Shown here: positions 1,198-13,365 of the stretch, one piece after another | Layout of the letters: every line of letters starts with the position of its first letter | Position numbering within the stretch: position 1 is the first letter of the stretch | DNA from: a virus | Taxonomy: Duplodnaviria > Heunggongvirae > Uroviricota > Caudoviricetes | IMG/VR virus record: IMGVR_UViG_2606217105_000011 | DNA length: 13,365 bases | Strand: one strand, 5' to 3' | Program-made: the position numbers and the translations under genes | The notes under the pieces: model-generated | Seen by the model: only the letters and a program-made list of their open reading frames with translations | What the model was told of the DNA's origin: nothing | Database searches by the model: none

Positions 1198-1761
1198 TTA
1201 CGTGGGTAGGATCAGAACTCCATCCAGTCGTTTGGGGTTGCTAATGACGTCCTGCATCCGCTTAATCTGGTCGGGCGTAGACATATAATCCCACAGGGTG
1301 AGCAGAACCTTTTTTGCGGCTACACTATTTCCCTGATCTGATACTAATGCCATATAGCCCCATAAACTATCCCTCAGCCAGACAGCATCATAGTGGGTTT
1401 CTGCCGCTGTTTTGTCATCTTCGAAAGTAGAAGCAAGAATAAATGTTCCCCAGGGTTTCTCCGTCAACGTTAACTTTCGTGTGTTTTCTGTTAATGTTAA
1501 CAACCCTTGAATTTCGTCTTTGGTATAGTGGCTCTTTATTTCATTTTTTAATTTGGCTGAGTGAATCAGAAGACGATAATTAGGGTACTTATCTGGATTT
1601 AACGATAAATAACTTTTATCTGTTGCTGCCCCCGTGGAATTAAGAATGTTAAATACAGATTCACTCGTCACTTCTGCCCCTGTCGCCTGGCATGTGCCGC
1701 ACGAAAATATACCAGCGAGCAGAAGAGTTAATGCAGATTTCCCTTTCATAAAATAATCCAT
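1198..1761 (-). pseudogene. IS3-truncated gene for a secreted glycoside hydrolase family 15-like (glucoamylase-family) protein; last 5 codons and stop come from the IS3 terminus
   Basis: Seen: the minus-strand ORF reads across the IS3 end (1214) and stops at 1198..1200 inside IS3. Probable start at ATG 1761 or 1749, giving a classic signal peptide MKGKSALTLLLAGIFSCGTCQA. The segment WGTFILASTFEDDKTAAETHYDAVWLRDSLWG resembles the conserved N-terminal GH15 motif (G-x-[IV]-[IV]-A-S-P-S ... Y-x-W-T-R-D-S). Only about 180 aa precede the junction, far short of a GH15 catalytic domain. Family call is from motif memory only. Confidence 0.45.
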
Positions 1762-2089
1762 CAATCGTTTGTTAAAAGCGTAGATAACCACTTATTCAAC
1801 AACTTGAAAATAAGGTATTTTACCTGGGTTGTTACAAAAGGATTGCATTGCGTAAACGCTTTTTATTTACAAAAAAATGGGGAAGTGTTACAGCGATTGC
1901 GAAAAGCCTGAAGCGGTTGAATTAAGATAATATAGAAAATCAGATACAGCAAAAATGGCAGATTGATCAGGTGAAGATAAATTGGAGCGGGCGAAGGGAA
2001 TCGAGGAAACCCATAATAACCTGCTGTAAAATAAAGATTTTGTGATCAATCATAGGTAACTGATTACGTGATAATAGAGGATCATTATC

Positions 2090-3310
2090 GTGTCGATCAA
2101 GAGCCAAGCATACTTATTTAAAAGAAAAGATGGGATCTGGATGTTTCAGATTTTTGTTCCTAAATACTTACGTCATCTTTACCCTTATAAGTTGTGGAGA
2201 AAAAGCACATCTACACGAGATCTGAATGAGGCGAGAAGATTCAGAAACCATCTATTATTAGAATGGGAGGAACTAAAGCGAAAACATAATCCTGATAACC
2301 CCGAAAGGAGGTTACAAAAAGCTATTGAATCCTTACATTCAGAGGCAAGGGCCAATAAAAACACGCAAAGAGCCGTAAAACGCGGTTATGCACCGCCTTC
2401 CCTGTGCCTAATACGTGACGAATACGCCGAATGCTACAGAGAGCGTCGTTCATACTCAACACTACAGAAATCAGCAAGGGCCGTTGAGCTATTTTTACAA
2501 AGCATTCAGAAAGATGATATTCATATTGAGAAAATAGGCAGACGGCTTGTAACAGTATTCTTAGATGACCAGAAGCAACGAGGAGCAGCCGATCAATCTC
2601 GTCAAAACTGGCTTACATGCTTAGGATCGCTCTATGAATTTGCTAAACGCCGTTATGACGGAATACCAGACAGTAACCCTTTTCACGGTCATAACCTCGA
2701 AGCACGTCGCACAATCGAGAGTTATCAACCGTTTACACCTGAACAAATGCAAAAGCTACTTGATGCAGCGGAGCCGGAGATCAGAAATATTATTTTAATG
2801 GGCTTGTTTTCAGGATGCAGATTAGACGAACTGGCAAGCCTGAAAAAGTCAGAGGTTGTAACTGTGGAAGGAATACGCTGTTTTTATATCAGCAAGAGTA
2901 AGACTAAAGCAGGGATCAGACACGTTCCGATACATTCGAGACTATCGATTATTGTCGATGAATATTTAAATCATAATTATGGTGAATATTTGTTCCCTCA
3001 CTCGAACAAAGTAAAAAGAATCGACGGCAAGAAAGGCCCGTTCTATTCTCAAGCATTCTCACGTTTACGTCGTAACGTCTTGCCAATCGCTACAGATAGA
3101 CAATGCTTTCACAGCTTGCGCGGGATGTTTATCACTTGTCTTGATCGTGCCGGAGTGCCTGAACAGCGGATCGGAGCCATTACCGGACATACAGAGCAGA
3201 GAGCTAAAACAGAAGCCTTTCGCACCTACTCACAAGGGGCAAGCATTCCAGAATTAGCTGAATATGTAGAATTAGTAAAATATGAATTAAATATTGATTT
3301 TAAGGCGTAA
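2090..3310 (+). CDS. int: Tyrosine-type site-specific recombinase (phage/island integrase), 406 aa, GTG start
   Basis: C-terminal catalytic signature readable in the translation: R in GCRLDELASL, K in the SKSKTKAG hairpin region, H-x-x-R in CFHSLRGMF, H in ITGHTEQ, and the nucleophile Y in FRTYSQG about 36 residues after HxxR. The N-terminal region looks like an arm-type DNA-binding domain. Upstream GAGGAT serves as an SD-like sequence. Confidence 0.85.
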   Translation: MSIKSQAYLFKRKDGIWMFQIFVPKYLRHLYPYKLWRKSTSTRDLNEARRFRNHLLLEWEELKRKHNPDNPERRLQKAIESLHSEARANKNTQRAVKRGYAPPSLCLIRDEYAECYRERRSYSTLQKSARAVELFLQSIQKDDIHIEKIGRRLVTVFLDDQKQRGAADQSRQNWLTCLGSLYEFAKRRYDGIPDSNPFHGHNLEARRTIESYQPFTPEQMQKLLDAAEPEIRNIILMGLFSGCRLDELASLKKSEVVTVEGIRCFYISKSKTKAGIRHVPIHSRLSIIVDEYLNHNYGEYLFPHSNKVKRIDGKKGPFYSQAFSRLRRNVLPIATDRQCFHSLRGMFITCLDRAGVPEQRIGAITGHTEQRAKTEAFRTYSQGASIPELAEYVELVKYELNIDFKA

Positions 3311-3417: not shown

Positions 3418-5259
3418 TTAACTTGGTGCTTGCCCAGACAGAGCCGCCAACGTGAAACTACGTTCAAAATCTTGTTGGATACTTCCCACTTTGTAATCGA
3501 GGTATGATCCAAGCTGACTACCATCAGGGGCGATATTCACATCCACCTTGCTTTCCGGCACGTTTACGACGATGTTCGGTGCATACGTCATAGATGGGGT
3601 AGTGTTCAGATCACGGCTAACGTTCTGTTTCAGGGATTGCACGTTATCAGATGGGCTTGCATAGTTCTGAATTGCAGTTCCGCCAGTCGTTGGCTTGTCT
3701 TCCGTGCCAGGAATAGGATCTAAGCCTAAAGCACTACGACCCCAATCAACCATACCACCTACAAACGAGTCCTTATAATACATACCGGACGAATCAAGGT
3801 TTTCATGCTTGTTCTCTGGGTTGATATTTTGGTATGCAGCAGTAAGCCACGATACAGCACCAGCAAAGGCGCTCATCATTTCAGCCGTTGAGCTTCCAAG
3901 TTCTTTAAACAGAGGATTCAAATCTTTCAACATTTGCGCCCACTCTTCACCAGCTTGAGCATCGAACTCTTCACCAAATCCAGTCATGATAGCTTTCTTA
4001 CTACCTTCCCATGCCATATTCATATTTGCCTGTACCGCTTGCAGACGTTCGGCAGCGTCCAGATCCGCTTGTGTATAGGTGGCATTGGCCTTTTGCATCT
4101 TAACGATGGTCTTGTTTAGCTCTTCACCATTACGACTAAAGGCACCACGGAAATATTGCAAATCATTGCCCAGGTCTTCAAGGATGTGCCCGATTTCTTG
4201 ATCTGATAATCCACGGCGTTCACCTTCTTTCACTACAGCGCCCAGGAAACCTAAAGGATCAGTCTGGAAACCTTTAACCTGTTCAGGTGACCAGCCATAT
4301 TTATTAAGGATGTTATCGACGGCACCATTACCGCCAGCCCAGCGACCTTTCTTAGCGTCCCATTTGGTATTCCCTACGGATTCACCTAAACGTTCCTGAA
4401 CGTCTTTAAGGTTGTCTTGACGTTGGTCTACGGAACTATCAACACCGTGTTCTAAGCCGTACTGGTTGAGAGCTAACAGGGCGTTAGTGTTTACGTTGAC
4501 AGCCTTTGCCTTGCGGTTAGTGTCTGTGATCTTGCTTGCCTGATCGGTTACGGTATTGAATATCGCAGCACCGCCGAAAGTAGCAGCAGTGAGAGCGGCA
4601 CCGCCTACCATTGCACCGACACCAGCGCCCATATGACCACCTTTAAGCTGTTTAGCCATATGTGGGTATTTACCGCCATCAGCCGCCACCTGGCGAGCTT
4701 TTACAGCAGCCGCACGGCGTTCTAACGTGATACGATCACGGATCAGGTGATTCATCTTAGCCTGGCTTATAGCGCCTTTCTCATACGCTGCCGTTTGTGC
4801 TTTGATGTATTGCAATGTTTTGTAGTACTGGGCGCTATCCATACCGTCGCCCATACGCCCTTTTTTGATGCCTTCAAGCTGTCTAAAAGCTTGCTGGCGT
4901 TTAATCTCTGCCTTCTCTGCTATTGTCGCTTTAGCGCGGATCTGTTTATCGGCAGCTATAGCGGCTTTAGCTTTCGCTTTAGCTTCTGCCTTTGCCACCT
5001 TATCAGCGTTCTTCTTGTCCGTTTGAGCTTGCTTGTCTGACGCTTTAGCATCAGCTTTAGCCTGTGTAGCTTTACGAGCCTTTACCAGATCATGAGCATC
5101 GTCTATAGCTTTTTTAGCCTTCTTCCCTTTCATCGTTGGATTGGTTAGGTTTTCCATTTCTTTTTGAAATTTCTTCCCTGCATCGCGTGCTTTCTGCAAT
5201 GATGCAAAATCAACTTTAAATACAACCTTGTTTGTTAAGGTTGAGATGTTTAAATCCAT
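3418..5259 (-). CDS. Phage structural protein, 613 aa: N-terminal Lys/Ala-rich coiled coil, central Gly-rich hydrophobic segment, large C-terminal domain (tape-measure-like, scaffold-like or internal/ejection protein; identity unresolved)
   Basis: ATG at 5259 with AAGGAAAA SD; stop 20 nt after the preceding gene. Composition features: KAKAKAAIAADKQIRAKATIAEKAEIKRQQ repeats, then GGHMGAGVGAMVGGAALTAATFGGAAIF. No motif I can assign to a named family by eye. Confidence 0.5.
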   Translation of the reverse strand: MDLNISTLTNKVVFKVDFASLQKARDAGKKFQKEMENLTNPTMKGKKAKKAIDDAHDLVKARKATQAKADAKASDKQAQTDKKNADKVAKAEAKAKAKAAIAADKQIRAKATIAEKAEIKRQQAFRQLEGIKKGRMGDGMDSAQYYKTLQYIKAQTAAYEKGAISQAKMNHLIRDRITLERRAAAVKARQVAADGGKYPHMAKQLKGGHMGAGVGAMVGGAALTAATFGGAAIFNTVTDQASKITDTNRKAKAVNVNTNALLALNQYGLEHGVDSSVDQRQDNLKDVQERLGESVGNTKWDAKKGRWAGGNGAVDNILNKYGWSPEQVKGFQTDPLGFLGAVVKEGERRGLSDQEIGHILEDLGNDLQYFRGAFSRNGEELNKTIVKMQKANATYTQADLDAAERLQAVQANMNMAWEGSKKAIMTGFGEEFDAQAGEEWAQMLKDLNPLFKELGSSTAEMMSAFAGAVSWLTAAYQNINPENKHENLDSSGMYYKDSFVGGMVDWGRSALGLDPIPGTEDKPTTGGTAIQNYASPSDNVQSLKQNVSRDLNTTPSMTYAPNIVVNVPESKVDVNIAPDGSQLGSYLDYKVGSIQQDFERSFTLAALSGQAPS

Positions 5260-5277
5260 AATATTTTCCTTTACCTT

Positions 5278-5493
5278 TTATTTATTCTGTTTTGATACGT
5301 AATATTGCACTGCTTCCATAGCGGAACAGCCTGTAGCAAAAATTCTTTGACGTACAGCGGTATTAGAGATCCCTAAAAACTTACATACTTGTGAGATATT
5401 TAGAATATCTTCCGGTAAGGTGGAAACAGCTTTCAGGATTTCAACGGGATTGTTATTTTGTGTGTTCATGGTTTTCTCACTTTTATTCGACAT
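5278..5493 (-). CDS. Small HTH DNA-binding protein (excisionase/AlpA-like or regulatory); probable true start at the internal ATG 5469 (MNTQ..., 63 aa)
   Basis: Helix-turn-helix-like segment DILNISQVCKFLGISNTAVRQRI. The internal ATG has a weak GAGAAA SD while the first ATG has none. Located between the capsid gene and the 613-aa gene in the same operon. Confidence 0.45.
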   Translation of the reverse strand: MSNKSEKTMNTQNNNPVEILKAVSTLPEDILNISQVCKFLGISNTAVRQRIFATGCSAMEAVQYYVSKQNK

Positions 5494-5613
5494 TAGAAAA
5501 CAAAAAGGGCAAAGAGATCCGTTACTGTATTTGTTTTACAGGTTAGTTAATCCCTTTTGCCCTTATTGCCTGTTTTATTTCCAGTCGCACAGGAAACGAC
5601 TATTAACGCTTTA

Positions 5614-6642
5614 TTACGCTACTGTGATCTGTACAGTGAAGCCTACGCCGTGGTTTACAACCATCTGGCTATTCTCGGTAACTACGTTTACAGCGTCGTT
5701 ACGTGCTGGGCTAAATGCATAGCTGTAATATTCAGCCGATCCAGAGTTCAGAAGGTCGAACGTTGAAGAAGGAGCGCCGAAAATGTTCTGATAGACGTTA
5801 GAGCCTTTAGCGAACTTCGGAACAGCCACCGCATCAGAAGTCATATGAGCCAGCAGCAGCGGATCGGTAACTTTGATCAGATCAATGTTAGTGCCTGGAA
5901 TAGTGAAGGTAGTCACACCTGGCAGCAGGGAGCGCACACTATAAACGATGTTTGCGTCATCGGTAGGGCTTGCATACTGGAACGCGTTAACCATGCCAGC
6001 ACTGTAACGGATAGCGTTAAATGCAGCAGGTTTACAGAATACAACGATACGCTCTACAGCAGCCGCCTGGCTTTGTGCTTTAGTAATAACGTCTGTATGC
6101 ATCTGATCGAATTGCTGGAACACCATAGAAGGCGTGGTGCTTGATGCGTCGATGGTTGCAGTCAGCGGAACAGCACTAAACAGATCGCCCCACTGAATCA
6201 GCACATCGTCAGTTTTAGGGGTGTAGGTGCGACCACTAAACAGGGAAGCAGCCAGTACGCTTTCTTTAGTACGCTGGAAAGCAATGTGGTGCTTAGCAAC
6301 ATATTCCGCGTAGATATCTGTCAGAGTCTCTTCAACGGTAGCGCCTGGTTTACGTTTGCCTTGAACGTCTTGCGGCTTAATCATATCTTCACGCAGGAAG
6401 TAGGGGATCTCTACTAAAAATTCTTTACCCTGTTCACGTTTAGTCACGTTATGTTCAGAAGAGAAACGAGAGGTTTCTTTGTTGAACAGAGATTCGTTAG
6501 TTTCCACCAGTTGGCTAACAGCCACTTTATGAGAACTCACACCTACCGGATCAGTGAAGTCCAGAGTAGTTAACAGGAAGTTGCGAGAGTCGTGCAGACT
6601 AAACAGCGGAGCCAGATCGACGGATTCATTACCAATAATCAT
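5614..6642 (-). CDS. Major capsid protein, lambda gpE-like family (342 aa)
   Basis: ATG at 6642 with AAAGGAATAAACATA upstream. Length matches lambda gpE (341 aa). By-eye colinear motif resemblance to lambda gpE: DLAPLFSL vs FDPLFLRLF near the N-terminus, IVVFCKPAAFNAI vs NIIVFDPKGWALF, DANIVYSVRS vs DVAIVVYSGQ, and C-terminal GFTVQITVA vs EFVSVQLA. Not search-verified. Confidence 0.6.
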   Translation of the reverse strand: MIIGNESVDLAPLFSLHDSRNFLLTTLDFTDPVGVSSHKVAVSQLVETNESLFNKETSRFSSEHNVTKREQGKEFLVEIPYFLREDMIKPQDVQGKRKPGATVEETLTDIYAEYVAKHHIAFQRTKESVLAASLFSGRTYTPKTDDVLIQWGDLFSAVPLTATIDASSTTPSMVFQQFDQMHTDVITKAQSQAAAVERIVVFCKPAAFNAIRYSAGMVNAFQYASPTDDANIVYSVRSLLPGVTTFTIPGTNIDLIKVTDPLLLAHMTSDAVAVPKFAKGSNVYQNIFGAPSSTFDLLNSGSAEYYSYAFSPARNDAVNVVTENSQMVVNHGVGFTVQITVA

Positions 6643-6660
6643 TATGTTTATTCCTTTATA

Positions 6661-7032
6661 TTAAGATGTGAATACAGTGTTAAAACCAGCCATCTGGAAG
6701 CCTTTAGCAGCCAGAGCAGCAATAGCGGCTTCTTTAATAGCGCCTTCAACATTCAGAGCATCAGACTTGATGCAAACCAGTCCGGCATTGCTACGCAGCA
6801 CGTTAACGGTTTTAGCGTCGCCAGCGGATACCGCATCAGACACAACCACAAGAACATCGCCGCCGCTTACATATTCAGCGCCGTTACTGGTAATCAGATC
6901 GCCGCATTCCACATCAACCGCCAGATCAACGGTAAAAGATTGCACACAACCGAACTCATCAGTTGCATAGCTCACGATATCGGTAAATGATTTGCGAACT
7001 GGAAACAGATCGCTCATATTAATAATAGCCAT
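6661..7032 (-). CDS. Small capsid-associated protein, candidate head decoration/cementing protein (123 aa)
   Basis: Positional only: encoded immediately upstream of the gpE-like capsid gene (as gpD is in lambda), has a decoration-protein size, is Gly/Ala/Val-rich, and has a strong SD (AAGGAAA). I could not see convincing sequence similarity to lambda gpD. Confidence 0.3.
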   Translation of the reverse strand: MAIINMSDLFPVRKSFTDIVSYATDEFGCVQSFTVDLAVDVECGDLITSNGAEYVSGGDVLVVVSDAVSAGDAKTVNVLRSNAGLVCIKSDALNVEGAIKEAAIAALAAKGFQMAGFNTVFTS

Positions 7033-7034
7033 AA

Positions 7035-7250
7035 TTAATAGTTTCCTTTTTTGGATTGTTTGATTTGTTCTGCTTTTGCTTTAATCAGATCCTGCATAGT
7101 AGGCTTCTGTTCATCAGCAGACTTAAAAAGCTTATCACAATGTTTTTTCAATTCTGTTGGAGTGATCCCCAACATATAAGCCGTAGCATTGAATGTTTCA
7201 TCAGTGATAATCAATTCTTCGTTACCATTCTTTAGAATGAGATTTTGCAT
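7035..7250 (-). CDS. Hypothetical small protein (71 aa), first gene of the capsid operon
   Basis: ATG at 7250 with AAAGGTAAAG upstream; its stop abuts the next gene's SD/start (7032). No recognisable motif. Confidence 0.4.
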   Translation of the reverse strand: MQNLILKNGNEELIITDETFNATAYMLGITPTELKKHCDKLFKSADEQKPTMQDLIKAKAEQIKQSKKGNY

Positions 7251-7290
7251 TGTTGCTTTACCTTTTTTCTAACGTTCTTGTTTAGTCCTG

Positions 7291-7322
7291 ATAAAATAAA
7301 ACCGGAAGGGGAAAGCTTCCGG
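7291..7322 (-). terminator. Intrinsic terminator (minus-strand orientation)
   Basis: Perfect 7-bp stem CCGGAAG(7302..7308)/CTTCCGG(7316..7322) with a 7-nt loop. On the minus-strand RNA it is followed directly by UUUUAUUUUAU (reverse complement of 7291..7301). On the plus strand the U-tract is poor. Confidence 0.6.
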
Positions 7323-7444
7323 CTTTATGGATACAAAACATATGAAGGATGCGATAGAAGTGTTACTAAATCGTATTTATATGCACTTAAAGAGGGTAGG
7401 ACATATAAGAATAAGATTGCTTATTGTTATATACCCTTGAGGGG

Positions 7445-7520
7445 TGAATAACAGGCTTACAGGGAGTAGGCGCTTAGGAGGTCGCCCCCTTTGGAGAGGA
7501 ATCTATAAACCTGTTATTCG
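7445..7520. repeat. 10-bp perfect inverted repeat (GAATAACAGG ... CCTGTTATTC) flanking a 54-bp GC-rich core; candidate RNA stem-loop or protein-binding/recombination site
   Basis: Seen: 7446..7455 is the exact reverse complement of 7510..7519. The enclosed sequence contains a GGCG...CGCC sub-hairpin and an AGGAGG motif. A 10-bp perfect inverted repeat this close together is unlikely by chance. Confidence 0.45.
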
Positions 7521-7786
7521 TGCGATGGCTAATCGCTGTCTTTCTCAATGTGGATGCATCGATCAGACTTTCAGGAATCACCTATTAACTTTCAAACCTT
7601 TTGGATTCTCATTTTAATAGGAGGCGGTGCCGAGATGATTTCGGGGATCATCCACGCATTTCGCGTTCTAAGATTGGCACCTTAATAAACACCAACAAAC
7701 AAAAAACTTATTTAGCTTTGGGCTTAATAGAAACTGTTGTCAAGAAACAGATATACACCGTTATTTGTTTATACGGGGTTTATAGA

Positions 7787-7807
7787 CACTGTAAACAGTG
7801 TTTTTAG
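7787..7807 (+). terminator. Putative intrinsic terminator (plus-strand orientation)
   Basis: ACACTG(7787..7792)-TAAA-CAGTGT(7797..7802) hairpin followed by TTTTT on the plus strand. Implies a plus-strand transcript ending here inside the ORF-poor region. Confidence 0.4.
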
Positions 7808-7825
7808 AAAGTGTTTCATGCTTCA

Positions 7826-7865
7826 CAGTTGGTTAAAAAGATGAGGGGCCAAGTCCTTAGCCCCT
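7826..7865 (-). terminator. Putative intrinsic terminator (minus-strand orientation) downstream of the small-gene operon
   Basis: Stem AGGGGC(7844..7849)/GCCCCT(7860..7865) with a 10-nt loop. On the minus-strand RNA it is followed by CUCAUCUUUUUAAC. About 265 nt downstream of the last gene of the operon (ends 8130). Confidence 0.35.
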
Positions 7866-8129
7866 GCATTCTTAAGACACAATATGATAAAGCAATAAGG
7901 AAAATAAAATGAAACTATTAACGAGGGAAACAATTTCTAAAAATCACTGTAAAGGGAAAGCGAGGCAGGTTAGATAGGGCGCGACCCCTTGAGGTCTACC
8001 CCGCTTTCGTGTAGGATTAGAATCGGTAGAAGGTTTAACGCCAGCTAACACCTGTTTTCTATTCTGCCCCCTATATTTCTTATTATATAACATTTCTGTT
8101 AGAAAGTCAATAGGTAAATCAAAGTTTTT

Positions 8130-8342
8130 TCAGTTCTTTTCGTTCGTTAACTGCCAATCACCAAATACACAATTACCATCTAAAACAATTGTTTGTTCGT
8201 TACCGTTATCATCGGTTACGTGCATCAGGCGGGTGTAATTGTCGAGATTGCCAGTGTAGATCTTGCCTACTGTGAAGCAATTACCCGCTTTGCCTTCTTC
8301 TGTGAGTGCCAGGAGGCGCACACGTTTAGTTTTTACTGTCAT
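8130..8342 (-). CDS. Hypothetical small protein (70 aa)
   Basis: Start at 8342 overlaps the stop of the upstream gene (translational coupling). Last gene of a minus-strand operon. Confidence 0.45.
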   Translation of the reverse strand: MTVKTKRVRLLALTEEGKAGNCFTVGKIYTGNLDNYTRLMHVTDDNGNEQTIVLDGNCVFGDWQLTNEKN

Positions 8343-8650
8343 TAGTTGTTAGCCTTATCGATTAGTTGTGCTATGAGTGGTTGCAAGTCTGCTACCGCTT
8401 GTTGCATGATTTCAGTGGTGTCATTGATCACGGTAATCAGGTTATTCAGATCATCAGCTTCAATCTGTGCACCTTCGGATTGTTTGCACGCTTCAATAAG
8501 CAATTGCAGTGCTTCCCGCGTCGATTCCAGATTAATAACCGCCTGTGTGATGGTCAGTTCGCTTGGAAAGGTCAGAGCCGCATTAACTGCTTTCTGTAAA
8601 GAAATAATAAGATCGTACATCTGAAGCGTTACGTTGTGTGTAGTGCTCAT
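8342..8650 (-). CDS. Hypothetical small acidic, predicted all-helical protein (102 aa)
   Basis: Start at 8650 overlaps the stop of the upstream gene. Strong excess of D/E over K/R in the translation. Confidence 0.5.
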   Translation of the reverse strand: MSTTHNVTLQMYDLIISLQKAVNAALTFPSELTITQAVINLESTREALQLLIEACKQSEGAQIEADDLNNLITVINDTTEIMQQAVADLQPLIAQLIDKANN

Positions 8651-8871
8651 TATGCCACTTCCTCTAATTGTTCTAATTGTTGTTGTGCTTCGCGTGCTTT
8701 CTTCATAGCGATAGTGAGCGGAATTTTATAAGTTGCAATGCTGTCTATAACGTCATCCAGAATTGCCAGATCGTTCTCTTCCTTTGCTCGTTCGATAATA
8801 TCTATGAAGCATTCTGAAAGAAGCTTGAGATCGTGAAAAGTGGTTGTCTCTAAAATTGCTTTGTTAATCAT
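8650..8871 (-). CDS. Hypothetical small acidic helical protein (73 aa)
   Basis: ATG at 8871 with AAAAGGAAAA SD; stop overlaps the next gene's start at 8650. Confidence 0.5.
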   Translation of the reverse strand: MINKAILETTTFHDLKLLSECFIDIIERAKEENDLAILDDVIDSIATYKIPLTIAMKKAREAQQQLEQLEEVA

Positions 8872-8912
8872 TTTATTTTCCTTTTGTTAAGGGTTATATT
8901 CATCTAATGCTG

Positions 8913-9293
8913 TTAATCGTCAATGTTTACTTTATCAAGTAGAAGTAAGTCTGTTTCTCGAACTCCTGCATATTGCAGGCTATTAAGCGCCATATACCCC
9001 CTAAAATGGGCCATGTCTGAAAATCCCAAACATTGCCATCTTTTAAGAAGACTACTATCAATGATTGTTGTTTTGCGTGGGCGTGGATTGAAGTAAACGC
9101 CAGGCATACTTTGAATGATTGATAATTCTGTGTCTGTTAATTCTGGGCTTGGTTCTTCAAGTATGAAGATCAATTCTTCGCCTGGTTCCGCATCATGCTC
9201 ATAGTTATATTTACGAGGATTGTTTAACGCATACTGATCACATGCTTCGCCAATAGTTGTTATTACGTTTTTCTTACCTTTTTTCTTGCTCAT
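8913..9293 (-). CDS. Hypothetical protein (126 aa), Lys-rich N-terminus
   Basis: ATG at 9293 with GAAGGGGAAG SD. No recognisable motif. Confidence 0.5.
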   Translation of the reverse strand: MSKKKGKKNVITTIGEACDQYALNNPRKYNYEHDAEPGEELIFILEEPSPELTDTELSIIQSMPGVYFNPRPRKTTIIDSSLLKRWQCLGFSDMAHFRGYMALNSLQYAGVRETDLLLLDKVNIDD

Positions 9294-9414
9294 TGCTTCC
9301 CCTTCGTTTTGTTTTTCTTGTTGCAGTGTTAAAAAAGGAAGCGATCATAAATACTAAGAAAAATATTAAGCTTTCCATTGTTTCACCCTTCAAGATGTTT
9401 GATAGTTGTTTGTT

Positions 9415-9633
9415 TTAAGCTACAGAGTCGATTCTGAATGCTTTCATATGAGTTTTGGTATACTGCAATAATCCTTGTTTACTTAGGCTATCGAGAAGAG
9501 CATATAAAAATTGCTCACCTACCACACCGGAAAACTCAGAATCAAACAGAATCATTCCCGTTCTTTCCCGTAAATATTGCAGAAAGGTTTCTTGTGAAAA
9601 TTCGCTATCGAATATGGTCACAGCGCCACCCAC
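9415..9633 (-). CDS. Hypothetical ORF (72 aa from a GTG start, no SD); may be the C-terminal part of a split or frameshifted gene
   Basis: Frame is open from 9651 with a GTG at 9633 and no convincing SD. It overlaps the end of the upstream ORF by 16 nt with a 34-nt two-frame-open window (9618..9651). Confidence 0.25.
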   Translation of the reverse strand: MGGAVTIFDSEFSQETFLQYLRERTGMILFDSEFSGVVGEQFLYALLDSLSKQGLLQYTKTHMKAFRIDSVA

Positions 9634-9875
9634 AATTCGAAAGGGCTTATCTCAAGCAAACGGAACGTCTGACTATTCACAGCCTCATACTTAATTACCC
9701 CAAAATGGCTCAGGTGATTTAACCAGTGCTGTGTGTGTTCTTTACTATGAGGTAACTCCTGCCAGCTGATAATCGCGGGTAGCTCATAATTGCTATCAGC
9801 AAGCTGTTTTGCCAGTGTGTAGCCGCTTTCTGTAATTTCGAATGTTCGTTTGTTTAATGTCAGGTTGTATTTCAT
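9618..9875 (-). CDS. Hypothetical protein (85 aa); possibly the N-terminal part of a frameshifted gene continued by 9415..9633
   Basis: ATG at 9875 with AAGGAGAA SD. Its frame ends at 9618 while the downstream ORF frame is already open from 9651. Confidence 0.45.
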   Translation of the reverse strand: MKYNLTLNKRTFEITESGYTLAKQLADSNYELPAIISWQELPHSKEHTQHWLNHLSHFGVIKYEAVNSQTFRLLEISPFELWVAL

Positions 9876-9887
9876 TTTTTATTCTCC

Positions 9888-10553
9888 TTAAAATGGTATT
9901 GAGTCATAGATTTCACTTTCTTTTCTCAGGGCTATCATCAGTGCATTAAAAGCATCATCTTCAAGAATTATCCTCTTCGAGGTCAGTGCACGTTTTATAA
10001 AATTTTCTGTTTCTTCTTGCATAGGCTTTTGGCTGTCTATGGAAATAAGCCATGTAAAAAGATCAGATTGTTCCGTGATTTCTGCCTGTGTTTCCTGCTC
10101 AATAGAGTGTGTCGCTTCTAACGGTTCCTGTGTTTCAGGTGCAGGCTGTTCTACGTTTACAGAGGTTTTTACGTCTTCCGGTGGTGTGATGTGTGCATCT
10201 GTAAAGGGTAATGCTTTATAGAGTGATGTTTGCCCGTCCCGTGCCTCTACAGAAAGAACACCCATATCAATAAACATATTTATAATATTACGCACCTGAC
10301 GATCACTAACCATTCCAATATTAGCTAATGTTTTTTGATTGGCGTAACATTCTTGCCCTTGTTCATTGAACCCAGCTACGTAACTGTAGATTTCAACGGC
10401 TGGAAGTGTCGCGGTGTATTCCTTACCTGACGGTGAGAACCACTTTTTAAACATCTTCAGCCATTGTTCAACTACTACATATGTTTGTTTACTATCTTTC
10501 TTATTGAGGCATTGCGCTTTTGCTTCGGCAATTGTTTTGGTGTTTTGGTTCAT
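9888..10553 (-). CDS. Winged-helix/HTH DNA-binding protein with acidic linker and C-terminal helical domain (221 aa); candidate replication initiator/replisome organiser or regulator
   Basis: ATG at 10553 with a perfect AAGGAGG SD 6 nt upstream. HTH-like segment NIGMVSDRQVRNIINMFIDMGVL; acidic E/Q/T-rich linker; C-terminal helical region. Functional call is an inference from architecture. Confidence 0.5.
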   Translation of the reverse strand: MNQNTKTIAEAKAQCLNKKDSKQTYVVVEQWLKMFKKWFSPSGKEYTATLPAVEIYSYVAGFNEQGQECYANQKTLANIGMVSDRQVRNIINMFIDMGVLSVEARDGQTSLYKALPFTDAHITPPEDVKTSVNVEQPAPETQEPLEATHSIEQETQAEITEQSDLFTWLISIDSQKPMQEETENFIKRALTSKRIILEDDAFNALMIALRKESEIYDSIPF

Positions 10554-10677
10554 TTAGTTCCTCCTTTGTAAGGACTGTAATTAGTAATTCATTAACAAGT
10601 TTTGGAATTGATTTCCCTTCTGCCTTTGCACGATTTAACAACGCGTTATAAGTTGCAGAATCAAAATTAATATTCAT
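10501..10677 (-). CDS. Ribbon-helix-helix (CopG/Arc/MetJ-like) small DNA-binding protein, 58 aa; not in the supplied ORF track
   Basis: Hand-translated from the minus strand: MNINFDSATYNALLNRAKAEGKSIPKLVNELLITVLTKEELNEPKHQNNCRSKSAMPQ. ATG at 10677 with AGGAGAAGGAG upstream. Beta-strand/helix/G-K-S turn/helix pattern typical of RHH proteins (compare CopG ...MAREMGLSKSAMISVAL...). Its 3' end overlaps the start of the 221-aa gene by 53 nt in another frame. Confidence 0.55.
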   Translation of the reverse strand: MNINFDSATYNALLNRAKAEGKSIPKLVNELLITVLTKEELNEPKHQNNCRSKSAMPQ

Positions 10678-10700
10678 TTGGTTTTCTCCTTCTCCTGTTA

Positions 10701-10883
10701 TTATTCTTTCTCTGCTTCTGCCTTACGCAGTTCATCAATAATTTTTAGTGCATCGTCAAAGCATTTTTCACGCTCTGGATAACCACAGCGCCGCGCTGTG
10801 TTCCTGTTCATCCTTACTTGATGTCGTGTTAGCTCACCTTTTTTAAATGCCTCTACGACGTGTTCCGGTGTATACCATTTCAT
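10701..10883 (-). CDS. Hypothetical small basic protein (60 aa, MKWYTPEHVV...), first gene of the small-gene operon
   Basis: ATG at 10883 with AAGGAG 7 nt upstream. The longer track ORF (to 10916) starts at a GTG with no SD. Confidence 0.45.
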   Translation of the reverse strand: MKWYTPEHVVEAFKKGELTRHQVRMNRNTARRCGYPEREKCFDDALKIIDELRKAEAEKE

Positions 10884-11867
10884 AAAAAACTCCTTATTTA
10901 GATAAAAGAAAAACACACCTTGCAGCCTGACGGCTCAAAGTGCAGTGTTCTGTGATTTGATTATTTAGATGGAGAGAGATGTTTCTCCCCTCCCTACTTA
11001 CAATACTACATAACGGCGGCTTTGTCAACCCTCTTTTATAAAAAATCTGATCATTTTCAATTTCTTATAATTTTTCTTAGCTTTTTGTGCTGCATACTCT
11101 GGTACAATTCTTCCCTGTTGTCTAAAACGCTCTCAATCGCACTCTGACGGGGTTTTGATAAAAACAATACATTCCCTTATGTAGAGGTTGTTTATCTCGT
11201 CGGAGGCTTATTTAAGGGGCTTATTTTTGATTTATCAGATGATGGAAAGATGGTGGATAGATAAACTCTGATTTCAGACATCTTATAAAATACCTGCAAA
11301 GTTCTCAGAAGCTCTGTAACGAGCTAATCTATTACCGCTAAGGTGTTTCCCTTACATTACCCTGTTTAGCTCGCCTACGGCTTGATTTAAGCGGTAGAAT
11401 CTTATTTAACCTTCAACTACAAAAACCATTCTTTCTTTTTTGTTGTTGGTTGTTTTGTCATGTTATGCGTTAGCATCCCCAAAGGGTAACGCGACACTAA
11501 CAACCATTCGCTTACGCTCAGGTTATTGCACAAGTAAATTTCAATCGTTAGATGGTAGTTAGTTAATTATCGTTCTGCGCACAGCGCAAGACTATTAGCC
11601 ATACGCAAGCCGTAGGCTATTTGCACATAGTAGATTACATATTCGTTGTGAGCGGAAAGCGAACATAGATCAGCTAACTACTAACAAAAAACAAAAAACA
11701 AAAACTATCTGTTATGACAAGCATCAGTCTAACTTGTGCAAGGTTCTGGCGAATGCCAATAGATTAAGGGATAGTCGAAGACTCCCTAACGGGTATCCCT
11801 ATAATTATTCTTTAAAAGATAAAAGAATTTATAAAAGATAGTTTAATTGTAGTTTAATTATAGTATT

Positions 11868-11919
11868 GTAGGAACTCATTTCCTGGGTAGGTAGGAACTC
11901 ATTTCCTGGGTAGGTAGGG
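11868..11919. repeat. Tandem direct repeat, 2 copies of a 23-bp unit GTAGGAACTCATTTCCTGGGTAG plus a partial third copy; each unit contains the palindrome AGGAA-N5-TTCCT
   Basis: Seen: 11868..11890 and 11891..11913 are identical, followed by GTAGGG. Internal inverted repeat AGGAA(11870..11874)/TTCCT(11880..11884). Lies in a 1.2-kb ORF-free region. Iteron/operator-like. Confidence 0.7.
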
Positions 11920-12181
11920 AAACCGCACTATACACTGGTAAGTGTCTTGCACAGAAAAAGGTATCAAAAATGTCTAAAGCCCCTTTAGATAAAAATGATA
12001 CCTTTATACATGCGCTAATAGCGCGCATAACAATAACCTACTAACAACTAACTAACTAAAAAGTAAGAAGATGTTGTTATGATTAGTGTATCGCTCAACG
12101 CTCACATCTATCTCTGATCTATAAATTGGTAACTGTCTAACAACAACAAACTGATCCTACCCACGTAATATGGACACAGGC

Positions 12182-13048
12182 CTAAGCGAGGTTCTGGTTT
12201 TCAAATTGTTCCGGACTGAGGCCGCCACACCAACTGTGCCGCCGCCACCGATTGTAATCACATTCGATATAATTAAACACCGTTGCCCGCATTATTTCCC
12301 GGCTGATAAAGTGTTCTCCATGGATACATTCCACTTTCAGCGAATGAAAGAAGCTTTCCACGCAGGCATTATCGTAGCAGCAACCTTTTGCGCTCATACT
12401 TCCACGCAGATTATGCCGCTTCAGTTGCGCCTGATAATCTGCTGAACAGTACTGGCCTCCACGGTCCGTGTGAACGATAACGTTCCGGGGCCTCTTACGC
12501 CGCCACAGCGCCATCTGCAGGGCATCGCAGGCCAGTTGCGCCGTCATGCGTGGCGACATTGACCAGCCAATAACGGCACGTGACCACAGGTCAATGACCA
12601 CTGCCAGATACAGCCAGCCTTCATCTGTACGTAAGTACGTGATGTCTCCTGCCCACTTCTGGTTCGGGCCACTGGCGTAAAAATCCTGCTCCAACAGATT
12701 TTCTGACACAGGCAGGCCGTGTGCGCGGTAGCTGACCGGGCTGAACTTCCGGGAGGCCTTTGCCCTCAGTCCCTGACGGCGCAGGCTTGCCGCCACGGTT
12801 TTTACGTTAAAGGGGTAACCCTGAGCACGCAGTTCATCCGTCAGGCGTGGGGCACCGTAACGCTGTTTTGACCGGGTAAAAGCCGCGAGGACAACGCTGT
12901 CGCAGTGTTGGCGGAACTGCTGACGCGTGCTTATCCTTGTCCGCCGCTGACACCACGTATACCAGCCGCTGCGGGCCACCCGGAGCACGCGGCACATTGC
13001 TTTGATGCTGAACTCAGCCTGATGTTTTTCAATAAAGACATACTTCAT
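12182..13048 (-). CDS. insF: IS3 transposase OrfB (InsF-like, DDE)
   Basis: Translation identical to the 318..1184 ORF. Confidence 0.92.
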
Positions 13049-13344
13049 TTCAGGCGCTTCGCGAAGTATGTCGCGGCCTTTTGGAGGATAGCCAGCTCTT
13101 CATCCCGTTCTGCCAGCTGGCGTTTGAGACGTGCAATCTCGGTAGACATCTCCAGTTCACGTTCAGAAGACGTCTGCTGATTTTGCTGTTTACTGCGCCA
13201 GTTGTAGAGCTGTGATTCATACAGGCTGAGTTCACGGGCTGCGGCAGTAACACCGATGCGTTCAGCAAGCTTCAGGGCTTCACTGCGAAATTCAGGCGAA
13301 TGCTGTTTACGGGGTTTTTTACTGGTTGATACTGTTTTTGTCAT
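13045..13344 (-). CDS. insE: IS3 transposase OrfA (InsE-like)
   Basis: Translation identical to copy A orfA; ATG start placed at the mirrored position of 22. Confidence 0.92.
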
Positions 13345-13365
13345 GTGAGTCACCTCTGACTGAGA

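Follow-up and report, generated by a model that had tools for sequence, protein, structure and literature searches.

Among the described phage satellites, the closest analogs of the locus reported here would be the phage-inducible chromosomal islands (PICIs) of the capsid-forming type (cf-PICIs), which are Enterobacterales islands of ~12–15 kb with an integrase, a replication module and an HK97-fold capsid protein of their own, and which form small capsids and borrow their tails. In SatelliteFinder, cf-PICIs comprise 11 core components, and tail genes are forbidden for both PICIs and cf-PICIs (PMC10085698). The DNA analysed here (the window; 13,365 nt, IMG/VR virus record IMGVR_UViG_2606217105_000011) carries part of an integrase-bounded replicon of 12–14 kb with a Rep-like initiator and iterons, in which an operon on the minus strand at 3418–7250 encodes a major capsid protein (MCP), a cement-like protein and a homolog of the tail tape-measure protein (TMP). 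The replicon belongs to a widespread enterobacterial island family, ~13 kb in size and apparently undescribed; in a search of the full-text literature that included the protein accessions, subscription-only papers aside, the family was described nowhere. These islands are best read as a new family of helper-dependent satellites, the helper dependence of which we infer.

The cf-PICIs are found in the same host genera as these islands, but they carry a portal, a protease, a head–tail adaptor/connector, small and large terminase subunits (TerS and TerL) and HNH, all of which are missing from the element. Conversely, the element has a TMP and, in most lineages, a Dit-like protein, while cf-PICIs have no tail genes, and its MCP differs in belonging to the gpE family and being related to those of virulent myoviruses. 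The classical Gram-negative PICIs consist of int, alpA, pri-rep and genes for capsid morphogenesis or packaging redirection, with no capsid, portal or tail genes, whereas the element has an integrase but no AlpA or primase family match, and both capsid and tail genes are present. The enterobacterial satellite P4 (~11.6 kb) is alike in its integrase, its own replication and its defence hotspot, and it forms a small T=4 capsid with a myovirus helper, P2; it differs in using the helper capsid protein, which is sized by Sid and decorated by Psu, and in having alpha primase, delta and epsilon. No match to sid, psu, delta, epsilon, alpha primase or alpA was obtained among the element proteins in Pfam, PHROGs or NCBIfam. 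The first-pass annotation of the window had considered its configuration to be unlike P4-like elements, PICIs and cf-PICIs, and the element indeed falls short of the defining features of all three.

PLE of Vibrio cholerae is also a chromosomal island; its target is a large virulent myovirus, ICP1, whose head assembly it redirects to small capsids, and the ICP1 coat protein (8g1r) was found among the structural neighbours of the element's MCP. However, PLE is confined to Vibrio, shares no core-gene sequence homology with the element and has no capsid protein of its own, the ICP1 coat being remodelled by the external scaffold TcaP (title of PDB entry 8g1r). The Acinetobacter satellite Aci01-2-Phanie and the Streptomyces satellites MiniFlayer and Mulch are likewise small (~12–18 kb) and reportedly encode capsid proteins themselves, while a helper supplies other virion or replication parts (10.1101/2025.06.18.659913; PMC10690885). 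In contrast to the element, these genomes are free and phage-like and bring a packaging machinery of their own, and none is reported to have just an MCP, a cement protein and a tape measure. Phanie is said, by Pourcel et al. in 2024, to be phi29-like, and it reportedly takes its whole contractile tail from the helper. By analogy, the element would be most like a cf-PICI in owning a capsid and borrowing a tail, and PLE-like in exploiting a virulent myovirus and in requiring a small capsid.

Recurrence and coding content of the island

A total of 42 related loci were compared, comprising 17 from genomes, 21 from IMG/VR and four whole-element contigs, with 38 loci mapped by tblastn using the element proteins together with phage terminase, portal, gp265, sheath and tube, and the four contigs mapped by gene calls. 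The loci come from at least 10 enterobacterial genera, including Escherichia, Klebsiella, Enterobacter, Citrobacter, Kluyvera, Buttiauxella, Scandinavium, Pantoea and others, and they share one gene order, which runs from small open reading frames (ORFs) through the Rep-like gene, further small ORFs, a protein of 66–94 aa, the cement-like protein, the MCP, a small helix-turn-helix (HTH) protein and the TMP (with or without a Dit-like protein) to the integrase, with host genes directly beyond it. None of the 38 mapped loci gave a tblastn match to phage TerL, portal, gp265, sheath or tube, and the Pfam listings of the called genes, including those of the four whole-element contigs, contained no portal, protease, adaptor/connector or terminase. 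In the window and in the intact relative L001 (strain PM4-5), neither ORFs nor family matches for a terminase, portal, protease or connector were found, and a colinear full head/tail module was present in none of the 42 loci. The recurrence of a block of integrase, capsid and small genes lacking terminase and portal was thereby observed, and the earlier statement that the window holds no terminase, portal, protease, connector or lysis genes was confirmed and extends to sheath, tube and baseplate.

The MCP family forms 74 clusters with identities ranging from 35% to 98%, all from Enterobacterales and nearly all full length (341–358 aa), and an MCP-profile search of 5.8 billion proteins yielded no closer MCPs outside the island family. 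The layout is retained at an MCP identity of 37% in Enterobacter ludwigii (L024), where a 630-aa protein is a collinear tape-measure homolog, and rluB-like, btuR, sohB and topA genes come immediately next. The cement–capsid cassette was detected in 394 of the 5,426 complete E. coli genomes (~7%), with up to three copies each. The structural genes are under purifying selection, with pairwise dN/dS of 0.1–0.27; the values are 0.10–0.125 for the MCP, 0.16–0.27 for the cement-like gene and 0.14–0.24 for the gene upstream of it, and 0.095 for the TMP (window versus L002, a close pair). Because the same minimal layout recurs in 42 loci under purifying selection, a pattern that convergent decay cannot yield, the element is a maintained genetic unit and prophage decay is rejected. 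Of the two proposals made earlier, the drastically reduced prophage is thus set aside, with 42 related loci of which none has a full colinear module and with purifying selection, while the capsid-encoding satellite is favoured by the recurrence and the selection; we infer its helper dependence, and beside the head shell it supplies part of the tail core.

The operon consists of five minus-strand ORFs encoding, from upstream to downstream, proteins of 71, 123, 342, 71 and 613 aa, with gaps of 2, 18, 120 and 18 nt, and both the ORFs and their tight coupling are as first annotated. The 342-aa protein (5614..6642, minus strand) is a capsid protein of the lambda gpE family with the HK97 fold, as had been proposed, and is predicted to assemble into a shell. 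It passes the cutoff of Pfam PF03864 (Phage_cap_E; 41 bits versus 22.9, E 1.7e-10), matches PHROG 29 (major head protein, 7e-11) and aligns end to end with the MCP of phage anhysbys (NC_052656) at 24% identity. When the family profile was searched against all PDB sequences, the top match was Phi92_gp124, at full length, with an E-value of 8.5e-18. An AlphaFold2 (AF2) model built from 18 family members has the HK97 fold (pTM 0.72, pLDDT 70), and its Foldseek matches are the capsids of PhiTE, Bas63, Sf14, ICP1, YSD1/Chi and lambda, with probability 1.0 and E-values down to 5e-16.

The 123-aa protein (6661..7032, minus strand) was assigned from its AF2 model (pLDDT 82, pTM 0.72) and Foldseek as a cement- or decoration-like protein with a gpD/SHP-like fold. 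The best matches of the model are Bas63 9ncf_J, Sf14 9c2d_K and PhiTE 9cul_a (probability 1.0, TM 0.53–0.62), followed by phage 21 SHP and lambda gpD, with YSD1 also in the top set, and almost all of the top 13 matches are capsid decoration proteins (TM 0.44–0.62, probability 0.72–1.0). No sequence match was found for it in Pfam, PHROG, NCBIfam or the PDB, nor any sequence link to the anhysbys cement protein (hhalign probability 2%), so that of the two proteins for which profile matches had been sought the 342-aa one has a family match and the 123-aa one a fold match only. Its gene lies immediately upstream of the MCP gene, an order shared with phage anhysbys, phi92 and lambda. Considering the consistent decoration matches and this position, a gpD-type cement protein is a reasonable reading of the model.

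The first gene of the operon (7035..7250, minus strand) encodes a 71-aa protein, is translationally coupled to the cement-like gene and occupies the scaffold-gene position of lambda-type head modules. Its position and size (66–94 aa) are kept in all lineages, no Pfam or PHROG family could be assigned to it beyond sub-threshold matches or matches of unknown function, and no similarity to phage gp265 was found. As it sits where lambda Nu3 sits, it is perhaps a scaffold. The other 71-aa protein (5278..5493, minus strand; a 63-aa form in RefSeq) lies between the MCP and the TMP, a place kept in nearly all lineages. The ORF described earlier as a small HTH protein exists, while the HTH itself is weakly supported, with all family matches below threshold; a regulator, an excisionase or a DNA-binding factor may be considered as candidates.

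The 613-aa protein (3418..5259, minus strand) is a full-length homolog of the tail tape-measure protein, with a predicted role in tail length and ejection. It comprises a Lys/Ala-rich coiled-coil N-terminus, a Gly/Ala hydrophobic segment at about residues 211–237 and a conserved C-terminal two thirds. It matches PHROG 16051 ('tail length tape measure') at 2e-67 and the TMP of phage anhysbys (gp254) at 30% identity over 475 aa (BLASTP, 3e-61), the latter being encoded where a TMP gene is canonically found, with the tail chaperone on one side and the baseplate (hub) genes on the other. In the PDB, its residues 78–611 match residues 118–655 of Phi92_gp134 at 8.9e-50. In the 2026 structure of phi92, gp134 is a trimer in the centre of the baseplate that is ejected with the DNA (PMC13450770). 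The first-pass annotation had described the 613-aa protein as coiled-coil and Gly-rich and had listed no tail genes, a statement that the tape-measure homology overturns. The TMP is 609–633 aa long in the islands versus 659–662 aa in phages. Among the E. coli lineages compared, the tape measures are 30–38% identical and the capsid proteins 72–81%, which implies that the tail-core module changes much more quickly than the head module, by evolution or by exchange. In the IMG/VR loci L036 and L039 (11334–14496 in both), the tape-measure homolog was found in two pieces ~1.3 kb apart, which suggests an insertion, possibly of an IS, inside the gene.

In most sister lineages (20 of the 21 IMG/VR loci, together with L014, L015 and L020), an extra gene lies between the TMP and the integrase and encodes a Dit-like protein of 218–237 aa (Pfam PF21821, 3e-29). 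It is 56–65% identical to Stephanstirmvirinae gp253/gp135, whose gene lies directly downstream of the phage tape measure, and it matches Phi92_gp135 at 1.5e-68. In phi92, assembly of the tail tube begins with gp135, a hexameric tube initiator (PMC13450770). The tube-initiator gene is missing from the whole lineage of the window, where the stops of the TMP and the integrase are 108 bp apart, and also from the Klebsiella and Enterobacter lineages; the Pantoea lineage has neither the tape measure nor the tube initiator, with Kiwa in that place in one case.

Phage relatives, proposed mechanism and rival explanations

Phage relatives were sought by tblastn against 50,697 phage records. The TMP matched only virulent myoviruses of ~150 kb in the Stephanstirmvirinae (Phapecoctavirus, Justusliebigvirus and Dompiswa), and the Dit-like gene is essentially confined to the same subfamily. 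The MCP matched the Stephanstirmvirinae too, but 138 of its 244 records are Pseudomonas phages, probably of Pakpunavirus type. With identities of 22–25% for the MCP and 25–32% for the TMP, the nearest phage relatives of the virion genes are virulent myoviruses of the phi92/phAPEC8 type, exclusively so for the tail-core genes. Among solved structures, the MCP, TMP and Dit-like protein find their best matches in phi92 gp124, gp134 and gp135, respectively, and the cement-like protein falls into the gpD-type fold class of gp123; the gene orders cement–MCP and TMP–tube initiator are also the same. The differences from phi92 lie in its virulent 150-kb genome, T=13 head and ~20 structural genes, and in an identity that is high only for the tube initiator (56–65%). 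Two small genes are shared with phage anhysbys, with the gp057 homolog inside the window and the gp209 homolog outside it, and the host ranges of the islands and the candidate helper phages overlap in E. coli, Klebsiella and Citrobacter. In anhysbys itself, gp266 (8030–8509 in L003; 116029–116508), which is annotated 'DNA methyltransferase' and stands between the portal gene and the head genes, is probably misannotated, since it matches Peptidase_S78_2 (XkdF-type prohead protease) at 1.4e-11.

Of the ~20 structural proteins of the phi92 type, the element keeps counterparts of two head-shell proteins and one or two inner tail-core proteins. It has its own replication module, is far smaller than a phage and lacks essential virion and packaging genes, and because of this lack it would have to depend on a helper. 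We lean towards the reading that the family consists of phage satellites with a phi92/phAPEC8-like helper from the Stephanstirmvirinae or close to them. Upon infection by a phi92-like phage, the element would excise and replicate from its iteron origin, and its own shell proteins would form a small capsid sized for ~13 kb, for which a T=4 capsid would fit, by analogy with P4 and the cf-PICIs. Such a capsid would be needed because 13.7 kb, ~9% of the helper genome, would be lost in a T=13 head (~150 kb). The small shell would be assembled on the helper portal and filled by the helper terminase, and the protease, connector, tube, sheath and baseplate would be the helper's as well, while the tape measure of the element (and the tube initiator) would replace those of the helper in the tail channel and exit the tail with the DNA. 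In phi92, the tube polymerises on a core made of the counterparts of these proteins, and this core leaves the tail with the DNA (PMC13450770). The possible gain might be a DNA-delivery core matched to the satellite, an escape from entry exclusion or interference with the helper. Chimeric virions of this kind, in which a satellite-made small head shell and tail inner core are mounted on the helper portal, terminase, tube, sheath and baseplate, are put forward tentatively, as possible rather than probable.

Several observations weigh against a satellite with such a helper. The evidence is computational throughout, with excision, replication, packaging and transfer as predictions, and the IMG/VR matches are provirus predictions in isolate genomes or metagenome contigs that exceed the size of the element, for which reason they are uninformative on encapsidation. 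As the MCP is only 22–25% identical to that of the helper, its fit with the helper's portal, protease and scaffold is uncertain; its model has low confidence at the N-arm and E-loop, and the cement assignment stands at the level of the fold, with a marginal best Foldseek E-value (~1e-3). Neither a TerS nor a pac or cos site was found in the element, no repressor or inducer-sensing gene was recognised in it, and no match was obtained when its 2.3-kb non-coding region and the leader of the capsid operon were compared by blastn with the same 50,697 phage records. The tube initiator is missing from some lineages, and from Pantoea the TMP as well. The copy in the window, which is interrupted by IS3 and has no tube-initiator gene, may be inactive even should the rest of the family be active.

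Two candidate signals linking the element to a helper were discarded. An A/C-rich motif that would amount to pac-like mimicry, with 85% identity over 41 nt to a 1.6-kb non-coding gap of anhysbys, was dismissed because the phage genome contains 31 such runs and other island lineages have not kept the motif. A helper-specific late promoter was rejected as well, since the late intergenic regions of anhysbys carry ordinary strong sigma-70-type promoters, which leave nothing diagnostic to compare.

The same structural genes might instead serve an anti-phage defence island that is never packaged and moves otherwise, the homologs acting as dominant-negative 'poison' or decoy subunits that abort the assembly of phi92-like phages. 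That these homologs are diverged virion parts of one virulent phage group would suit such a role, as would the known defence genes in the cargo hotspot (PD-T7-4, Kiwa and SieB), the Kiwa system of Pantoea at exactly the usual place of the TMP gene, and the failure to detect any packaging function. However, the core proteins match no known defence model, poisoning by co-assembly is unlikely at an MCP identity of 22–25%, and a matched shell set (MCP, cement and upstream protein), Rep with iterons and a constant size of 12–14 kb are what a packaged replicon needs, unlike a decoy. We regard a pure defence island as unlikely, and since satellites interfere with their helpers too, the two readings are compatible. 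It is likewise improbable, in our judgement, that the islands are satellites of another helper, unsequenced or unrecognised (for example, a temperate or rarer myovirus), and that the Stephanstirmvirinae are merely relatives of the donor from which genes were taken long ago. The 22–32% identity of the MCP and TMP to known phages, the MCP matches to Pakpunavirus-type phages of Pseudomonas and the missing DNA-level mimicry of the candidate helper would agree with this, but the tube initiator of the sister lineages is 56–65% identical to, and essentially confined to, the Stephanstirmvirinae, two extra small genes are common to the element and phage anhysbys, no closer MCPs were found outside the islands among 5.8 billion proteins, and the host ranges overlap.

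An ordinary prophage, once complete and now without its terminase, portal, tail and lysis genes, would account for an integrase beside a tRNA att site, for the phage structural genes and for the IS3-hit copy in the window. It is nevertheless very unlikely, considering that the same minimal gene set was found in 42 loci at three att sites with MCPs down to 37% identity, that no locus has a fuller module, that dN/dS is 0.1–0.27 in all structural genes, and that the MCP has no closer relatives in full phages; independent decay would not converge on one layout. Least credible of all is a self-sufficient producer of minimal particles, such as a GTA-like element or a very small virus, with portal and packaging functions hidden in small ORFs: about ten small ORFs (58–126 aa) without a detectable family are available, but no ORF is big enough for a portal or a large terminase, the tube, sheath, baseplate and lysis functions are missing, and a tape measure is useless without a tube. 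The reading as satellites of a phi92/phAPEC8-like helper is the one retained below.

Integration, replication and non-coding regions

The window is E. coli chromosomal DNA from the region bounded by the ETT2/ygeQ locus and the tRNA-Gly gene glyU, and it begins and ends with IS3 copies of exactly 1,214 nt, inverted relative to each other. The left copy (1–1214) truncates ygeQ (GH15; 1215–1791, minus strand), while the right copy (12152–13365, minus strand), which is foreign to the element, interrupts it within its non-coding region, 238 nt beyond the iterons. The window, both ends of which fall within IS3 repeats, is probably a contig from a draft assembly, and the right IS3 junction at 12152 is absent from the 5,426 complete E. 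coli genomes. The attR side of the element lies outside the window; intact elements run ~3.5 kb further to the tRNA past the point matching the IS3 site, and in those elements this part holds, besides defence cargo and attR, the genes of a small recombinase and of a small protein that looks secreted. Owing to the IS3 insertion, the window copy may have lost its mobility. The first-pass annotation had called the configuration unusual if intact; unusual it is, and the interruption by IS3 had been overlooked.

At 1983..2004 on the plus strand, 22 nt with the sequence TGGAGCGGGCGAAGGGAATCGA repeat the 3′ end of tRNA-Gly (glyU) and form the attL core, which occurs once in the window, with 0 chance matches expected. 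In L001, the same 22-mer is present at 9734–9755, just upstream of the integrase, and at 23417–23438, inside the tRNA-Gly gene glyU, so that the pair flanks an intact element of 13.7 kb; the element in the window accordingly starts at 1983. The tyrosine integrase (2090..3310, plus strand; 406 aa) comprises DUF6538, SAM-like and catalytic domains, matches Pfam Phage_integrase (1.3e-12), DUF6538 (2e-9) and PHROG 1 (integrase, 2e-38), and has a pairwise dN/dS of 0.06–0.10. At least three attachment sites were recorded in the family, namely tRNA-Gly(ccc), tRNA-Thr(cgt) and tRNA-Leu(caa), and the element size is 12–14 kb in all lineages, across genera and att sites. The Logan contig L049 (13,653 nt) carries an identical 23-nt tRNA-derived core at both termini, meaning that the assembly broke at both att cores, which fits a sample with occupied plus empty or excised forms. 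L049 shows a discrete site-specific unit with presence/absence polymorphism at the att core, and is proof of neither a circular form nor packaging.

At the tRNA-side end, intact elements encode a conserved protein of ~190–205 aa that consists of the catalytic domain of a tyrosine recombinase alone, is the size of the FimB/FimE invertases and has weak NCBIfam matches to tyrosine-type DNA invertases. After it comes a signal-peptide-like protein of 67–71 aa homologous to anhysbys gp209 (1e-4 for a 71-aa ORF of the intact element), and the region spans 20983–21770 in L001, 2768–3585 in L004, 3955–4726 in L008 and 4165–4767 in L024. An invertible switch operated by this recombinase was considered and rejected, with no inversion polymorphism across the loci and with unconvincing inverted repeats.

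Satellites such as P4 and the PICIs typically have a fixed hotspot of defence genes (see PMC10085698). In this family, variable cargo was found in a hotspot on the tRNA side, with PD-T7-4 in L001 (6e-90; 21776–22815) and SieB, HNH and Dam in others, and further cargo in the family loci comprises a LlaJI-type restriction system, DUF2971 and Kiwa. The LlaJI-type restriction–modification (RM) system of L009 and L010 lies, with an AAA_5 protein, just past the integrase (15548–19653 in L009), and the Pantoea-type variant L046 carries Kiwa (KwaA/KwaB) on the integrase side, at the usual place of the tape-measure gene (9566–11108); the cargo of L049 lies at 551–1039.

The Rep-like initiator (9888..10553, minus strand; 221 aa) was assigned from sub-threshold matches to Pfam HTH_36 (1e-4) and from matches to PHROG 270/391/186/345 (replication initiation, O-like and DnaD-like; 7e-6 to 4e-4). 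The initiators of the family are merely 16–35% identical to each other, and six of the eight divergent proteins end in ...(D/S/T/H)(I/L)PF, the window's in ...EIYDSIPF; the C-terminus was compared also in L015 (14696–15265), L014 (14132–14824), L008 (6924–7547), L007 (7257–7979) and L024 (7029–7772). The tip of the bacterial single-stranded DNA-binding protein (SSB) recruits many replication and repair proteins. The C-terminal tip of Rep resembles that SSB tip (DDDIPF) and may be a mimic of the SSB tail that recruits host factors to the origin.

The rep operon starts with two small ORFs (58 and 71 aa; 10501..10916, minus strand), both of which are conserved in the family. Between rep and the capsid operon, small ORFs of 102, 73, 126, 72 and 85 aa (8342..9875, minus strand) have no match in Pfam, PHROG or PADLOC, and the 126-aa ORF (8913–9293) is conserved across the whole family. 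The 70-aa protein (8130..8342, minus strand) was recognised by local tblastn as the homolog of gp057 from the early region of phage anhysbys, with 44% identity over 64 aa (E 1.8e-13).

An ORF-free stretch of unusual length, 2.3–3 kb (18650–20983 in L001), is present in every family member, and the iterons take up ~50–130 nt of it. The window holds part of a 2.3-kb stretch (10917..12151, cut by IS3 at 12152), a probable origin of replication and regulatory region as judged from its motifs. It contains two perfect 23-nt iterons at 11868–11913 and promoter-like sites on the minus strand at 11028–11000 and 11136–11107, facing the rep operon. The sister lineages have iteron arrays of their own (6 × 22 nt in L014 and 5 × 23 nt in L015), and lineage-specific iterons matching divergent Rep proteins are what a Rep-specific origin would be expected to show. 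All E. coli lineages have kept the first ~370 nt of the stretch, with the promoter-like sites, and some of them ~600 nt more, and the identity of the conserved blocks (10917–11880 in the window) is equal to or above that of the capsid gene.

The capsid operon is preceded by a non-coding leader of ~880 nt (7251..8129, minus strand), which has a near-consensus sigma-70 promoter (TTGACT-17-TATAAT at 8110–8082, minus strand). A strong intrinsic terminator follows at 7865–7844, ~220 nt past the promoter with no notable ORF between, and a second hairpin with a T-run lies at ~7330–7296, just ahead of the first gene. The leader is mostly lineage-specific in E. coli, with only ~7586–7515 and the promoter region common to other lineages. 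No conserved structure was found in it, the leaders being too diverged between genera, and an Rfam scan for known RNA families gave chance-level matches alone. The arrangement could suit regulation by read-through, or a small RNA or attenuated leader for the capsid operon.

Implications for satellites, phages and hosts

If the proposed reading is true, these islands would represent a new hijacking strategy between those of PICI/P4 and cf-PICI, in which head shell and tail core are owned by the satellite and all else comes from the helper, and they would be the first satellites known to swap tail-core components. Since tail genes are forbidden in satellite finders, and a portal and terminase are required for cf-PICIs, such tools would miss the family; this would explain its escape from the censuses of satellites and suggests that these have a blind spot. 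Phages of the phi92/phAPEC8 type are popular candidates for therapy and biocontrol, and the islands, which are found in ~7% of complete E. coli genomes, may interfere with them; they are also present in many Klebsiella, Enterobacter and Citrobacter genomes, and they ferry PD-T7-4, Kiwa, SieB and RM systems. The tape-measure gene would, on the same condition, offer a handle on the role of the tape measure in DNA entry. Overall, the family would provide the first E. coli counterpart of the PLE–ICP1 type of conflict with a virulent phage, and a tractable E. coli model of satellites induced by virulent phages.

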